Positions 28,243-45,509 of a stretch of 64,000 nt of DNA are shown here, in pieces (within the stretch, counting starts at the first letter, position 1; the number at the start of each line of letters is the position of its first letter). A model generated the notes under the pieces. It made no database searches and was not told the DNA's origin. It was given only the letters and a program-made list of their open reading frames with translations. A program made the translations under genes and the position numbers. The stretch comes from an uncultured Actinomycetota bacterium (lineage in GTDB: Bacteria; Actinomycetota; Actinomycetes; Jiangellales; Jiangellaceae). The stretch covers positions 99,263 to 163,262 of the forward strand of contig CAWCXA010000011.1 in the NCBI GenBank assembly GCA_963799425.1, read 5' to 3'.

Positions 28243-28281
28243 TGTCCACATGCGTACGCGGCGACGGCGCGCCGTCCACAG
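28243..28281 (+). promoter_or_regulatory. composite direct-repeat element TGTCCACATGC-N20-GTCCACAG (copy A, upstream of comEA)
   Basis: Read directly from the sequence as cTGTCCACATGCGtacgcggcgacggcgcgccGTCCACAGtc. It ends 50 nt before the comEA ATG (28332). Identical architecture occurs at 38771 and 45471. Confidence 0.6.
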
Positions 28282-38329: not shown

Positions 38330-38381
38330 CCCGGCGGCGTCAGACGTCGTCGGGGGGCACGTCGAGAAGGGCAGGCAGGGC

Positions 38382-38702
38382 GTGAGCGCCGAGGACCTCG
38401 AGAAGTACGAGACCGAGATGGAGCTCTCGCTCTACAAGGAGTACCGCGACGTGGTGGGCCTTTTCTCGTACGTTGTCGAGACTGAGCGGCGGTTCTATCT
38501 GACCAACAACGTCGACCTGCAGGTCCGCAGTGACGGTGGCGAGGTCTACTTCGAGGTGACGATGAGCGACGCGTGGGTCTGGGACATGTATCGCCCGGCG
38601 CGCTTCGTCAAGAACGTGAAGGTCGTGACGTTCAAGGACGTCAACGTAGAGGAGCTCGCCAAGAGCGACTTGGAGATCAAGTCGCCGCCGTTCGGATCCT
38701 GA
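38382..38702 (+). CDS. DUF2469 domain-containing protein
   Basis: ORF trimmed to GTG 38382. SAEDLEKYETEMELSLYKEYRDVVGLFSYVVETERRFYLTN.... This is the conserved actinobacterial neighbour of rnhB. Confidence 0.8.
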   Translation: MSAEDLEKYETEMELSLYKEYRDVVGLFSYVVETERRFYLTNNVDLQVRSDGGEVYFEVTMSDAWVWDMYRPARFVKNVKVVTFKDVNVEELAKSDLEIKSPPFGS

Positions 38703-38770
38703 TCCGGTTAGGCCCTGGTTCGGCGGCACGCCGCCGGGCGACCGCGTTCGTCCGATTCGACGCGGCCGGT

Positions 38771-38809
38771 TGTCCACATGCGCTGTGAGGGCCCCTCGGC
38801 TGTCCACAG
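38771..38809 (+). promoter_or_regulatory. composite direct-repeat element TGTCCACATGC-N20-GTCCACAG (copy B, upstream of yraN-comM-dprA)
   Basis: Read directly as tTGTCCACATGCGctgtgagggcccctcggcTGTCCACAGtt. It ends 39-63 nt before the candidate yraN starts (38849, 38858, 38873). Confidence 0.6.
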
Positions 38810-38848
38810 TTGCGCGGTCTGATCTTCTCGCCATCCTTCTGCGCCGCG

Positions 38849-39232
38849 ATGGTGGTCGTGGAGGTGGTGCACGTGCGGGCCAAGGACGGGGTCGGATCCT
38901 ACGGCGAGAGGGTGGCCGAGCGGCACCTGATCGAGGCCGGGTTCACGGTGATCGACCGCAACTGGCGCTGTGACGTCGGGGAGGTCGATCTCGTGGCCTT
39001 CGACGGCGAGGACCTGGTGATCTGCGAGGTCAAGACACGCTCGTCTGATGCCTTTGGCGCGCCGCTCGAGGCGGTCACGCCCGTCAAGCTCCGCCGCTTG
39101 TGGCTGCTGGCCATGAGATACGCCGCCGCGCATGACGTTGCCTATCGACAGCTGCGAGTAGACGCCGTTGCCGTGCTCAGGCAGCGCAAGGGTGCGGCAG
39201 TCGTCGAGCACATCCGGGGGATCGGCTCATGA
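38849..39232 (+). CDS. YraN-family (UPF0102) endonuclease-like protein
   Basis: GERVAERHLIEAGFTVIDRNWRCDVGEVDLVAFDGEDLVICEVKTR. The start is uncertain (ATG 38849, GTG 38858 or 38873). The stop overlaps the comM start. Confidence 0.8.
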   Translation: MVVVEVVHVRAKDGVGSYGERVAERHLIEAGFTVIDRNWRCDVGEVDLVAFDGEDLVICEVKTRSSDAFGAPLEAVTPVKLRRLWLLAMRYAAAHDVAYRQLRVDAVAVLRQRKGAAVVEHIRGIGS

Positions 39233-40776
39233 CCGTGGCCCGCACGCACTGTGTCGCATTGCTCGGCATCGAAGGGCGCATGGTCGAGGTCGAGGCAGAT
39301 ATTGCCAATGGGATTCCAGGGTTCGTTCTCGTGGGGTTGCCCGACGCCACGCTCAACGAAGCGCGGGATCGGGTGCGATCGGCACTCGTCAACTCAGGCG
39401 AGGGATGGCCGCAGCGGCGGCGCACCGTGAGCCTCTCACCGGCCGACCTGCCCAAGAAGGGCAGTCACTTCGACCTGGCGATCGCGGTTGCCATTGCGGC
39501 CGCCGCCGGCACGGTGCCGCCGTCGGCGCTCGATGGCATGGTCTTCCTCGGCGAGCTGGGTCTCGACGGGCGAGCGAGGTCTGTTCCTGGCGTGTTGCCC
39601 GCCGTTCTGGCGTCGTCAAAGCGCGGCTTCACTCAGGTGGTTGTGCCCGAGGCCAATGCGGCCGAAGCCACGCTTCTGCCGGAGATGGCTGTGCTCGGGA
39701 TCCGGTCGCTTCGTCAGTTGCTAGCAGTGCTCCGTGGCGACCTGGTGCCGGACGAGCCGTCCGTTCCGACCGAGGAGGTCGTCTCCGAATCACCCCTGCC
39801 GCGGCTCTCGCTCGACATGGCCGACGTCGTGGGTCAGGCAACGGCACGGACGGCCGCAGAGGTGGCGGCCGCTGGGATGCACCACGTGATGATGATCGGG
39901 CCACCCGGATCGGGGAAGACGATGATCGCCGAGCGGCTGCCCGGCCTCCTGCCCGACCTCGATGCCGAGGAGGCGCTCGAGGTGACGGCAGTGCACTCGC
40001 TGGCCGGACTGTTGCACCCAGGGCAGCCGCTGGTGACGACGCCTCCATTCGCCGACCCGCACCACACCGCTTCCGTGGCCGCGATGGTTGGTGGTGGTTC
40101 GGGGGTCGCGCGCCCAGGTGCCGTCAGCCAGGCACATCGAGGAGTCCTGTTCATGGATGAGGCGCCGCAGTTCGGCGTTCGAGTGATCGATGCGCTGCGG
40201 GAGCCGCTGGAGAAAGGCGAGGTGCTCATGGCGCGCAGCCAGCGATCGATCCGGTTCCCGGCTCGCTTCCTGCTTGCGATGGCAGCCAATCCGTGTCCGT
40301 GTGGCTACTTCGGCCAACTGGACCACCCCTGTCAGTGTCTGCCCGACGCCGTGCGGCGCTACCGTCAGCGCATTTCCGGCCCGATCCGGGACCGCATCGA
40401 CCTCTGGGTCAAGGTCCCTTCCGTCAGAAGGTCTGCCCTCCTCGCAGGGCTCGGCCAGTCGGAGTCCAGCGTGACGGTTGCGGCGCGCGTTGCGGAGGCC
40501 CGGCTCCGGCAGCGACGGCGTTACACCGGGCTGCCGTGGCGGTGCAACGGCGACGTGCCAGGACCTGAGTTCCGCCGTCGTTGGCCGCTTTCCGCCGATG
40601 TTCTGGCCCCCGTCGAGGAAGCGCTACGCCTCGGGGAGCTCACCGCCCGCGGCGCCCATCGATCCATCCGGGTGGCCTGGACGGCGGCCGACCTGGCCGG
40701 GCGTAACCGACCGATCCTCGACGACACGGCGTTTGCTGTCGCCCAGCACCTCGAGACTCGGGCGGCCGCCGCATGA
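39229..40776 (+). CDS. comM: YifB/ComM-family Mg-chelatase-like AAA ATPase
   Basis: 515 aa. Lon-like N-domain, Walker A MIGPPGSGKTM, VLFMDEAPQF and a Cys cluster NPCPCGY...CQC. Confidence 0.9.
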   Translation: MTVARTHCVALLGIEGRMVEVEADIANGIPGFVLVGLPDATLNEARDRVRSALVNSGEGWPQRRRTVSLSPADLPKKGSHFDLAIAVAIAAAAGTVPPSALDGMVFLGELGLDGRARSVPGVLPAVLASSKRGFTQVVVPEANAAEATLLPEMAVLGIRSLRQLLAVLRGDLVPDEPSVPTEEVVSESPLPRLSLDMADVVGQATARTAAEVAAAGMHHVMMIGPPGSGKTMIAERLPGLLPDLDAEEALEVTAVHSLAGLLHPGQPLVTTPPFADPHHTASVAAMVGGGSGVARPGAVSQAHRGVLFMDEAPQFGVRVIDALREPLEKGEVLMARSQRSIRFPARFLLAMAANPCPCGYFGQLDHPCQCLPDAVRRYRQRISGPIRDRIDLWVKVPSVRRSALLAGLGQSESSVTVAARVAEARLRQRRRYTGLPWRCNGDVPGPEFRRRWPLSADVLAPVEEALRLGELTARGAHRSIRVAWTAADLAGRNRPILDDTAFAVAQHLETRAAAA

Positions 40777-41957
40777 CCGGGGCGGATCGGCCGGCGAGCT
40801 CACCCGACCTGCTCGAGGGGCAGGATGAGAGGCACGCACGCGCGCTCCTTACAGCGATCTGGGAGCCGGGAGACATCCCCTTCGGGCAGCGGGTGGCCGA
40901 GATCGGTGCCGTGCGCGTCGTCGCAGAGCTGCGCGACGGTTCACTGCCTCGGACCTCGACGGCTCGCCAAGGACTTGCCGCCGATCGCGCCCGGGTGATC
41001 AACGTCGCCGAGCTGCTCGATGCCGCCGCGCGCCGGGGCATCCGGTTCGTCATCCCCGGCGATGCCGAGTGGCCCGACTCCCTGGGCGTGCTCGACATGG
41101 TGAGCCTCGACAACATGGGCGGCCAGCCATACGGACTGTGGCTGCGTGGCCCGCTCGACCTGGCGGAGACATTGCGGCGATCGGTGTCAGTTGTGGGCGC
41201 GCGCGCCGCAAGTGCTTACGGAGAGCACGTCGCCACCGACGTGGCCGCCGGGTTGGCGGACCGGGGGGTGGCTGTCATGTCGGGGGCCGCCTACGGCATC
41301 GACTCGGCAGCTCATCGGGGCGCCCTCGCGGTCGGCGGGGCCACGATCGCGGTGCTGGCCTGCGGGGTCGACGTGATCTACCCGCGAGGTAACGCGAGTC
41401 TGCTAGGACGGGTCGCCGACGAGGGCCTCATCGTGAGCGAGGCGGCACCGGGTGCGACGCCCACGCGCCCGCGATTCCTGATTCGCAACCGCATCATTGC
41501 CGCGGCCACGCCTGGCACGGTCGTCGTGGAGGCAACTCCCCGGTCTGGCGCGCTAAACACGGCCAACTGGGCAGACAAATGCTCCCGCCAGGTCATGGGC
41601 GTCCCGGGCCCGGTGACATCGTCACTGTCGGCGGGTGTGCACGAGCGAATACGAAGCAGCGCCACGTTGGTGACCAGCAGCGCCGAGATCCTCGAGCTGA
41701 TCGGGCCCATTGGGACCGATACGGCGCCCGTGCCGAGGGGCCCGGAGCGTCCACGCGATGGTTTGCCGTCCGCGGCCGTCACCGTGCTCGAAGCAATGCC
41801 CAGCCGAGGTTGCGTCACGGTCGACGAGCTGTGCGCGACCACGCCGATCGCGCCGCGCGAGTGCATCGCGGCGCTGGGCTTGCTCATGGCTCGTGGGTTG
41901 GTGCAGTCCTCGCCCACCGGCTGGTCGCTCACCCGGCTGGCACGCACCGGAGGTTGA
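40773..41957 (+). CDS. dprA: DNA-processing protein DprA (Smf)
   Basis: 394 aa. VVGARAASAYGEHVA...MSGAAYGIDSAAHRGAL...RFLIRNRIIAA...GALNTA. Confidence 0.9.
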   Translation: MTGADRPASSPDLLEGQDERHARALLTAIWEPGDIPFGQRVAEIGAVRVVAELRDGSLPRTSTARQGLAADRARVINVAELLDAAARRGIRFVIPGDAEWPDSLGVLDMVSLDNMGGQPYGLWLRGPLDLAETLRRSVSVVGARAASAYGEHVATDVAAGLADRGVAVMSGAAYGIDSAAHRGALAVGGATIAVLACGVDVIYPRGNASLLGRVADEGLIVSEAAPGATPTRPRFLIRNRIIAAATPGTVVVEATPRSGALNTANWADKCSRQVMGVPGPVTSSLSAGVHERIRSSATLVTSSAEILELIGPIGTDTAPVPRGPERPRDGLPSAAVTVLEAMPSRGCVTVDELCATTPIAPRECIAALGLLMARGLVQSSPTGWSLTRLARTGG

Positions 41958-42127
41958 GCGCTCGTGGCGGGTGCACACCCGTGTGTTGCGGATCAAGACG
42001 TGCCGAGCGCCGTGACTGTTGCGAGGTCATGCCGTGCGCAGCCTCTGGATCCTCAAGCGGCAAACGACACGGCGCCAAGGGGGTGGCGGTTCTTGACCGT
42101 CCGCGCCACGGCGGCAACGGTGATCAT

Positions 42128-43090
42128 GTGAGCCGTGAGCCGAGCGAGCTGCCTGCATCGCTGCAACATGTCCTCGACGCATTCGTCCGGCACTTGGCGC
42201 AAGAACGCGATCGGTCGCCGCATACGCTCCGGGCCTACCGCGGAGACATCGCTTCGCTGCTCGACCACATGGTCCGGCTGCGGCATGACGATGTCTCCGC
42301 GCTCGACATCAGCGTTCTGCGGTCGTGGTTGGCTCGCCTTGCCTCCGAAGGTAGATCGCGAAGCACGCTCTCGCGACGGGCAGCGGCCGCCCGAGTCTTC
42401 TCCGCGTGGGGACACCGCACGGGCCTGCTCAGCACTGACCCGGGCGGTCAGCTCGCAACTCCCCGGCGAAGCAGGCCGCTTCCGGCTGTGCTCGAGGCAC
42501 GACAGGCACGTGACGTCCTACAAACTGCGGCTGAGGGCGCAGCCGCGGCGCCAGACACGGCATCTTTGCCGGCGGCCGCATTGGCGGTGGCAGTGCGAGA
42601 CAGTGCACTGCTCGAGCTGCTCTATGCCTCGGGCATCCGGGTCGGTGAGCTCGTGGGGCTAGACGTGGACGACATCGATCGTGGGCGTCGCGTGGTGCGC
42701 GTCCTGGGCAAGGGGCGCAAGGAGCGGACAGTGCCGTACGGCGCGCCGGCTGCGGCCGCGCTGGAGACGTGGCTGCGCAGCGGCCGGCCGCTGCTTGCGA
42801 GGGAAGCCAGCGGTCCGGCTCTCTTTCTCGGCCTACGTGGCCGACGCTTGGACCCGCGCACCGTCCGCCGTGTCGTGCACGCAGCAATGCAAGCGCTCGA
42901 CGGTGTGCCCGACCTAGGGCCGCACGGCTTGCGTCACTCGGCCGCGACCCACCTGCTCGAAGGTGGTGCCGACTTGCGAAGCGTCCAAGAGATGCTCGGG
43001 CATGCTTCGTTGGCGACCACCCAGATCTATACACACGTGTCTGTCGAGCGGCTGCGGCGCGCCTATGCGCAAGCCCACCCGCGTGCCTGA
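42128..43090 (+). CDS. xerC: tyrosine recombinase XerC
   Basis: ORF trimmed to GTG 42128. SPHTLRAYRGDI, ELLYASGIRVGELVGLD, GKGRKERTVP, HGLRHSAATHLLEGGADLR and LGHASLATTQIYTHV. Confidence 0.9.
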   Translation: MSREPSELPASLQHVLDAFVRHLAQERDRSPHTLRAYRGDIASLLDHMVRLRHDDVSALDISVLRSWLARLASEGRSRSTLSRRAAAARVFSAWGHRTGLLSTDPGGQLATPRRSRPLPAVLEARQARDVLQTAAEGAAAAPDTASLPAAALAVAVRDSALLELLYASGIRVGELVGLDVDDIDRGRRVVRVLGKGRKERTVPYGAPAAAALETWLRSGRPLLAREASGPALFLGLRGRRLDPRTVRRVVHAAMQALDGVPDLGPHGLRHSAATHLLEGGADLRSVQEMLGHASLATTQIYTHVSVERLRRAYAQAHPRA

Positions 43091-45470: not shown

Positions 45471-45509
45471 CTGTGGACGTGGGCCGCTGTCGGACGCGGC
45501 ATGTGGACA
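45471..45509 (-). promoter_or_regulatory. composite direct-repeat element TGTCCACATGC-N20-GTCCACAG (copy C, upstream of the M23 peptidase operon)
   Basis: The minus strand reads cTGTCCACATGCCgcgtccgacagcggcccacGTCCACAGag. It ends 51 nt before the M23 ATG (45419). Confidence 0.6.

Follow-up and report, generated by a model that had tools for sequence, protein, structure and literature searches.

A paired DnaA-box-type element with a predicted promoter ahead of yraN-comM-dprA and of a putative competence and recombination regulon in Actinomycetes

The switch that turns on competence in high-GC Gram-positive bacteria has yet to be worked out. A described case is that of Micrococcus luteus, in which comEA/EC is induced in minimal medium (PMC12849477) and for which papers from 2021 and January 2026 state that the competence regulator and its upstream signals are not known. 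In a comEA/EC-lacZ screen in this species, nearly every de-repressed mutant was changed in Mlut_14660 or its leader, Mlut_14660 being a small and apparently essential HTH_17 protein encoded divergently from cpaB-cpaE (PMC8467076). Here, we describe a paired-box element in a 64,000-nt stretch of DNA from an uncultured actinobacterium of the Jiangellaceae (GenBank assembly GCA_963799425.1, contig CAWCXA010000011.1, positions 99,263 to 163,262), hereafter termed the window, whose numbering is used for all coordinates given without a label. The copy in focus, copy B (38770-38809), lies ahead of yraN-comM-dprA, and the model proposed for it is an activator-dependent SigA-type promoter, read by DnaA, that would provide these genes with their own transcription start; we place the probability of the whole model at about 0.5. 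A description of this paired-box element was not found in the literature searched, and searches with the box sequences as strings returned primer matches only. As a conserved cis-signal of exact geometry, the element makes the switch-on of competence in this group experimentally approachable, given that it predicts regulon members, promoters, start codons, and two candidate readers, namely, DnaA and the HTH_17 protein.

A sequence-only reading of the window had drawn attention to a direct repeat in the gap between a DUF2469 gene and yraN, and the repeat is present as described: TTGTCCACA (38770-38778) and CTGTCCACAG (38800-38809) lie 30 nt apart in a gap that follows the DUF2469 stop at 38702 and contains ggTTGTCCACAtgcgctgtgagggcccctcggCTGTCCACAGttgcg. 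The letters from 38770 to 38809 are TTGTCCACATGCGCTGTGAGGGCCCCTCGGCTGTCCACAG, with TGTCCACA at 38771-38778 and again at 38801-38808 in a 30-nt register; TGTCCACA occurs five times in the window against an expected 1.66. Box 1 (TTGTCCACA, plus strand) matches the actinobacterial DnaA-box consensus at nine of nine positions, and box 2 (CTGTCCACA plus G, 38800-38809, plus strand) matches the DnaA box at eight of nine; their centers would fall near −86 and −56, respectively, from the predicted transcription start site (TSS). Also in agreement with that reading, the first half-site and its flank, the 12 letters TGTCCACATGCG, recur letter for letter at 28243-28254. This is copy A (28243-28281, plus strand), the same module placed before comEA-comEC, with TAGCGT at +39 and an ATG 6 nt later. 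Copy C (45471-45509, minus strand) is again the same module, before an M23 peptidase gene (ATG 45419), and is one base off TGTCCACATGCG at 45498-45509.

The 21 nt between the two 9-mers of copy B (38779-38799, plus strand) are unconserved in sequence. Across 49 sites from five genomes, the information content of the spacer is approximately zero, and the spacer is constrained in length alone, to a register of 30 ± 1 nt in the source genome. No conserved element was found inside it except for CGTCGCGTCCC, which is specific to the Arsenicicoccus lineage (G008 sites L093, L098, L103, L107, L122, and others). At these sites, the spacers share CGTCGCGTCCC / TGACGCGT approximately 4-14 nt after box 1; the motif was not seen in other genomes and may be a lineage-specific third site or the trace of a recent duplication.

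The spacing of the pair stands out genome-wide. In the source assembly (4.07 Mb, 68% G+C), direct pairs of GTCCACA at most 200 nt apart occur eight times at 30 nt, twice at 29 nt, and once at 31 nt, and at every other spacing once at most; by our arithmetic, the 410 copies of this 7-mer would give ~0.06 pairs at 29-31 nt. The 6-mer TCCACA yields 16 pairs at 30 nt and at most two at any other spacing. With a two-half-site weight matrix, ~19 sites score above 22, with noise at 18.5 or below. These 19 sites precede comEA-comEC (copy A), yraN-comM-dprA (copy B), the M23 peptidase gene (copy C), comFC, recA, two ssb paralogues, the tadZ/ssd Tad-pilus operon, a Flp pilin gene (DUF4244), a DUF4192 gene, a DUF2786 gene, an XRE-type gene, four paralogues with an AbiEi_4-like N-terminus, and three copies of a repeated element beside DUF222-HNH genes. 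One motif is therefore found ahead of both DNA-uptake and DNA-processing operons in a single genome, and, judged by gene content, the set is a predicted competence and recombination regulon of about 20 operons. At most sites, T-T precedes box 1, and 16 of the 19 have a G directly after box 2.

Alignment of the 19 source-genome sites on box 2 brought out a fixed position relative to the core promoter. A −10-like nAnnnT is found at +39 to +44 from box 2 (A at +40 in 17/19, T at +44 in 15/19), with the hexamer lying 39 nt after box 2 in 17 of the 19 sites, and a weak −35-like cT is discernible in between (C at +15 in 13 sites, T at +16 in 14). The ~19 sites have in common box 2, a −10-like hexamer 39 nt on, and, beyond the hexamer, either the start codon or a leader that is very short. 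The 39-nt distance is kept in seven other genera, including Knoellia, Arsenicicoccus, Amycolatopsis, Lentzea, and Kitasatospora, and is also constant in the yraN loci of relatives. In the source genome, comEA, the M23 peptidase gene, and comFC have their ATG 6-7 nt after the hexamer, as do most regulon members in the five genera just named. Because start codons at this distance are the signature of leaderless actinobacterial mRNAs, they support the −10 assignment and are the main reason to trust it. By this fixed geometry, the box centers fall near −56 and −86 of weak promoters, positions of the kind used by activators, and we infer activation rather than repression.

At copy B, the predicted −10 is GATGGT (38848-38853, plus strand), 39 nt after box 2 and conforming to nAnnnT, and a putative weak −35-like region, CTTCTC (38824-38829, plus strand), lies 23 nt before it. 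We infer a TSS at G 38860 ± 1, 6 nt past the predicted −10 and coinciding with the Shine-Dalgarno-like GGAGGTGGT (38860-38868, plus strand). The yraN mRNA would begin with GGAGGUGGUGCAC, followed by the GUG at 38873, such that translation would start there after a 13-nt leader containing GGAGG. The three candidate yraN starts proposed from the sequence alone (38849, 38858, and 38873) all exist, and the suggestion that the element could help in choosing among them proved useful: the predicted −10, GGAGGTGGT, and the length of the family all favor GTG 38873. The ATG at 38849 falls within the predicted −10 hexamer, and the GTG at 38858 is just 4 nt after it. The GTG at 38873 has the conserved GGAGGTGGT 8 nt upstream and gives a protein of 119 aa; homologues are mostly 118 aa long and cover 97-100% of that reading. 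The same GGAGGTGGT recurs at the same position before yraN in many genera (L007, L036, L042, L049, L081, L090, and others). In Knoellia, yraN is leaderless instead of GGAGGTGGT-led. For annotation, the element would fix the yraN start at GTG 38873.

The sequence-only reading had named a loss of conservation of this spacer in relatives as part of what would count against its proposal of a separate promoter. We collected 80 loci around DUF2469 from named Actinomycetota, 62 of which have a recognizable yraN, and scored two co-oriented boxes with at most one mismatch each within 170 nt upstream of yraN. The pair is kept at 40 of the 62 yraN loci, compared with 25 of 1240 random control windows from the same loci (65% vs 2%). 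At seven loci, other genes stand between DUF2469 and yraN and the pair stays directly before yraN; by its position, the pair tracks yraN, not DUF2469. Taken together, the fixed geometry of the 19 sites, the conservation at yraN, and the presence of the same module at other uptake and recombination operons argue for a predicted promoter belonging to yraN-comM-dprA, and the earlier proposal thus gains comparative support. These genes would not be merely the tail of the trmD-lepB-rnhB housekeeping run.

The register between the boxes is lineage-specific, amounting to 17-20 nt in Streptomyces, Kitasatospora, Lentzea, Amycolatopsis, and Blastococcus and to 26-31 nt in Knoellia, Arsenicicoccus, Ornithinimicrobium, Cellulomonas, Nocardioidaceae, and the source genome. 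The two classes differ by roughly one helical turn, and the whole regulon is present in both. In Knoellia, Arsenicicoccus, a metagenome-assembled genome (MAG), Amycolatopsis, and Lentzea, each genome has 6-16 exact pairs, and the reversed pattern gives 0-2; in the comparison covering Knoellia, Arsenicicoccus, and the MAG, the counts are 11, 14, 9, and 6 against 0-1. The excess over the reversed pattern is small in Kitasatospora (10 vs 6) and Streptomyces (7 vs 4). From these genome comparisons, the predicted regulon is conserved across Actinomycetes.

Since the boxes are the DnaA box of oriC, DnaA is the most likely reader, an assignment to which we give roughly even odds. The oriC of the source genome (the dnaA-dnaN gap, C7:299974-300481) carries TTGTCCACA twice, TTATCCACA, and weaker boxes, and the two boxes of copy B agree with the origin box at the nine and eight positions noted above. 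From one lineage to another, the first three positions of the 9-mer change in the regulon boxes (TTG, TTA, TTT, TTC) and TCCACA is kept, as in DnaA boxes. The source genome encodes one protein with the DnaA DNA-binding domain; a second protein with DnaA domain IV was sought there and not found, nor was a dedicated regulator recurring in or beside the regulon. In addition, purified Mycobacterium tuberculosis DnaA at 300 nM gives 3.6-7.2-fold enrichment of DNA lying 92 nt ahead of the comEA homologue, Rv2415c, a window listed among ~45 loci with >5-fold enrichment (PMC7738170, S8 Table).

In the proposed mechanism, copy B would serve as an upstream control module that gives yraN-comM-dprA a start of its own inside the trmD-lepB-rnhB-DUF2469 run. 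The two direct DnaA-box-type sites, at about −86 and −56 and on roughly the same face of the DNA, would precede a core promoter in which both the −35 (CTTCTC) and the −10 (GATGGT) are poor. Each box would bind one DnaA monomer, with the N-terminal domains bridging the two, and RNA polymerase would thereby be helped at weak promoters. The genes for uptake and recombination would then be expressed more strongly whenever active DnaA is plentiful, such as during replication stress or the slowing of forks induced by starvation.

Several observations weigh against this model. Chromatin immunoprecipitation sequencing (ChIP-seq) of DnaA in exponentially growing Mycobacterium smegmatis gave only five clear peaks and in vitro mapping only five strong sites, none of either at competence genes, and M. 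tuberculosis IDAP-seq has no entry at the yraN, recA, or tad homologues (PMC7738170). Escherichia coli DnaA requires box pairs 2-3 bp apart (PMC11317965), a spacing that does not apply here, with 21 nt between the 9-mers in the source genome and 8-12 or 20-23 nt in relatives. When boxes are compared with the origin of the same genome for co-variation, both yraN boxes read GTCCCCA in Actinotalea and in one MAG, and in Cellulomonas one reads GTCCCCA and the other GACCACA, with oriC keeping TCCACA in each case; other Cellulomonas regulon sites keep GTCCACA. The genetics of M. luteus point to the HTH_17 protein and cpaB, not to dnaA, at the comEA/EC promoter (PMC8467076), and DnaA as an activator under nutrient limitation is no obvious fit. 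In an M. tuberculosis-complex contig, the pair at yraN (the Rv2898c homologue) is inverted and one of its boxes is weak (L123:2890-3001, Logan SRR34504958): it reads TTATCCCCA-N9-CTGTCCACA on the opposite strand in an 18-nt register, and a −10-like CATCAT follows at 39 nt on the same strand, directed away from yraN. A degenerate version of this inverted pair is seen in Mycobacterium decipiens (L125). The mapped M. tuberculosis TSS lies 214 nt upstream of Rv2898c in the intergenic region (PMC4633059 supplement), such that the gene does have its own start, albeit not at the predicted position. Among the entries listed in mycobacterial TSS tables from exponential cultures, those for these genes are distant starts, at −214 (Rv2898c) and −186 (Rv2415c).

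A different reader of the same module and regulon is possible, if doubtful: a dedicated regulator whose site has come by convergence to match the DnaA box, or which competes for that sequence. HTH_17-fold proteins such as lambda Xis and BldC bind direct repeats as head-to-tail monomers, and the best named candidate is the small HTH_17 (excisionase/BldC-like) protein orthologous to Mlut_14660. The R64W substitution in Mlut_14660 alone reproduces the de-repressed phenotype (PMC8467076). The source genome, too, has a divergent HTH_17 / cpaB-cpaE module with boxes (C12:491385-491771), in which the HTH_17 gene starts at ATG 491529 (plus strand) and the operon of cpaB (SAF-domain) and a cpaE/tadZ-like gene starts at ATG 491385 (minus strand). 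Two perfect TCCACAG boxes, 41 nt apart and oriented toward cpaB, lie between them, and the arrangement is that of Mlut_14660 / Mlut_14650-14640, the locus struck in the M. luteus screen. One or two boxes are also present in the orthologous modules of Arsenicicoccus, Knoellia, Cellulomonas, a Nocardioidaceae genome, and a MAG; that of Arsenicicoccus has a 30-nt pair with TACACT at +39, pointing at the HTH_17 gene. The strict lineage-specific spacing, the GTCCCCA variants, and the largely negative mycobacterial DnaA ChIP and IDAP data at regulon genes would likewise suit a dedicated reader.

The distribution of the HTH_17 orthologue speaks against this candidate. It is found in 46 of the 61 genomes of the class sample, yet pairs are strongly enriched in G024, G033, G046, G049, and G036, as well as in Amycolatopsis and Lentzea, in none of which it was found, and many genomes that have the orthologue show no pair enrichment. 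The orthologue is therefore best viewed as a regulon member rather than a universal reader, and it is probably a modulator of the regulon. A proposed association of the orthologue with the extra helical turn of the ~30-nt class held in 11 of 11 genomes and then failed in the 61-genome sample. The M. luteus data moreover suggest a negative role, a poor fit with sites at −56 and −86. Other dedicated candidates fared no better: the XRE-type genes with sites in the source genome and Knoellia, considered as an autoregulated regulator, are unrelated to each other, and the GntR gene divergent from comEA is not conserved beside it. Furthermore, nine-of-nine identity with the DnaA box, typical degeneracy included, would be unlikely for an unrelated protein.

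That the boxes act negatively is unlikely. Here, bound protein, DnaA or another, would repress the promoter or block read-through from DUF2469, and loss of binding would switch the genes on. DnaA is known to repress its own and other promoters (review PMC8203912), the M. luteus model has the com genes repressed in rich medium (PMC8467076), and the element stands in the path of any DUF2469 read-through transcript. However, DnaA occupancy was not observed in M. smegmatis during growth (PMC7738170), and in all members a fixed distance keeps the boxes upstream of the −35 region and clear of the core promoter. The −35 and −10 are weak, as in activator-dependent promoters, and the divergent or first-in-operon members (comEA, the M23 peptidase gene, recA) have no read-through to block.

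Replication is known to be controlled in E. coli by clusters of DnaA boxes away from oriC, and such clusters have been reported for Streptomyces; the pairs could by analogy be datA-like reservoir or titration sites, or serve chromosome organization, with no role in transcription. We regard this as highly improbable, because each site has just two boxes, because their orientation and their distance to the −10-like hexamer and start codon are fixed, and because the downstream functions are strongly biased toward DNA uptake and recombination. Finally, the notion that copy B is a chance repeat without function has nothing in its favor but the shortness of each box and is already refuted by the spacing histograms, the 65% of yraN loci against 2% of controls, and the reversed-pattern controls, leaving it a negligible residual probability.

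Known promoter and operator types were also compared with copy B. An ECF41-type promoter (TGTCACA-N16-CGTC) was rejected on its 22-nt spacing, which does not fit; box 2 of copy B reads TGTC. The half-sites of NrdR, MtrA, and PhoP boxes presumably differ by one base, and we take their 11- or 31-nt dimer logic to be unfit as well. The PafBC −26 element is absent at copy B.

Returning to DnaA as the reader, a broader proposal is that it is the master activator of the competence and recombination regulon of Actinomycetes, acting through box pairs at −56/−86 of weak, mostly leaderless promoters, with the HTH_17 protein (Mlut_14660 type) a lineage-specific modulator and not the reader. We hold this tentatively, at somewhat less than even odds. 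If it is true, DNA uptake, DprA/ComM/RecA loading, and Tad-pilus synthesis would be coupled to the replication state of the cell, and with DnaA as reader, uptake and recombination would be wired to replication status across the class, including Streptomyces and mycobacteria.

The gene calls of the sequence-only reading around copy B hold by Pfam: trmD, lepB, rnhB, and DUF2469 upstream, yraN, comM, and dprA downstream, and a xerC-type recombinase after these; YraN, ComM, and DprA were assigned by Pfam matches above the gathering score. All lie on the plus strand. The DUF2469 gene (38379-38702; PF10611, E 3e-52) is the last of the trmD-lepB-rnhB housekeeping run. It is followed by yraN (38873-39232; UPF0102 family; PF02021, E 5e-25), by comM, encoding a Mg-chelatase-like AAA+ protein (39229-40776; PF01078, PF13541, PF13335), and by dprA, encoding DNA-processing protein A (40773-41957; PF02481, E 2e-62). 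The 4-nt overlaps of stop and start that had been noted at yraN/comM (39229-39232) and comM/dprA (40773-40776) are real. A 170-nt gap (41958-42127) separates dprA from the gene for a xerC-type tyrosine recombinase (42128-43090; PF00589, PF02899), whose GTG at 42128 is in frame with a long open reading frame (ORF) at 41579-43090. A scan of 38703-38770 in the DUF2469-yraN gap for a GC-rich hairpin with or without a T tract found no terminator-like site, and the fold of 38695-38775 is no more stable than that of shuffled sequences (z-score −0.25). With no terminator between DUF2469 and yraN, read-through may add to the output of the internal promoter.

Additional features accompany other members of the set. 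The control region of recA (C6:18120-18270) is composite: in order, it contains a LexA box (TCGAACAACCGTTCGA), a box pair, and, as its RecA-NDp element, TGTCGGGG-N8-TAGCGT. The −10 of this element is placed exactly 39 nt beyond box 2 and is thus shared by both. This stacking, with the box pair upstream of RecA-NDp and a common −10, is also found in Knoellia, Arsenicicoccus, and Amycolatopsis. At nrdR, three boxes (TCATCCACAAG, TCGTCCCCAGG, and TCATCCACAGAT at 0, 31, and 42 nt) lie ~100 nt upstream (C6:44905-44960), a further point in favor of DnaA as reader, given that it controls nucleotide synthesis and repair genes in E. coli (PMC11317965). The four paralogues (C16:319508, C9:163489, C7:495688(−), and C12:335632(−)) each start 45-52 nt past a box pair; by Pfam, one has the AbiEi_4-like N-terminal domain, and the 320-aa forms have no Pfam or NCBIfam match. 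Genes similar to them are regulon members in Knoellia and Arsenicicoccus. The repeated element (C7:39541(−), C16:105125(+), and C13:262687(+)) combines ttaccccacaaggcttcccggccaccc with a box pair and a good TTGACx −35 and lies upstream of DUF222-HNH (REP13E12-like) genes, directed away from them; two of these genes look frameshifted. A weak pair, CTGCCCCCAAC ... CTGTCCCCAGACC (C12:507403(−)), scores 18.5 and is probably sub-threshold; it precedes a gene, putatively mtrA, whose 5′-extended ORF contains MKGRVLIVDDD, typical of response regulators.

Among known systems, the element resembles DnaA-regulon promoters (dnaA autoregulation, nrdAB, polA, and uvrB in E. coli; the replication-stress regulon of Bacillus subtilis) in that the 9-mer is that of the cell's own origin boxes, the sites are paired, and the targets, with recA, ssb paralogues, and nrdR among them, serve DNA metabolism and repair. 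It differs in that 21 nt, or 8-12 nt in other lineages, rather than 2-3 nt separate the 9-mers, the boxes are strictly co-oriented at fixed −56/−86 positions, the targets are the DNA-uptake machinery, and mycobacterial DnaA ChIP and IDAP data are mostly negative. RecA-NDp / PafBC promoters (TGTCRGTG-N8-TAnnnT) are likewise related to DNA repair, LexA-independent, and equipped with a TAnnnT −10. In contrast, copy B and most members lack TGTCRGTG 8 nt before the −10 (at copy B, tctgcgcc and then gc precede GATGGT), and their boxes lie 39 nt upstream, not 8. With BldC/Xis-type HTH_17 systems (M. luteus Mlut_14660), the element shares direct repeats, the boxes at the HTH_17/cpaB module of the source genome, and the genetic link to M. 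luteus comEA/EC, but the orthologue is missing from several regulon-bearing genomes, and the BldC repeat is AT-rich with a period of ~10 nt. Compared with the cis elements of competence in other bacteria (ComK boxes of Bacillus, the cin-box of sigma-X in streptococci, and CRP-S/Sxy in Gammaproteobacteria), the sequence is unrelated, the repeat is direct rather than inverted, the phylum is another, and no ComK, sigma-X, or TfoX logic is evident. The element nevertheless shares with these systems the use of one short motif at a fixed promoter position that unites comEA-comEC, comF, dprA, comM, ssb, recA, and pilus genes, and ComK boxes likewise fall into classes whole helical turns apart.

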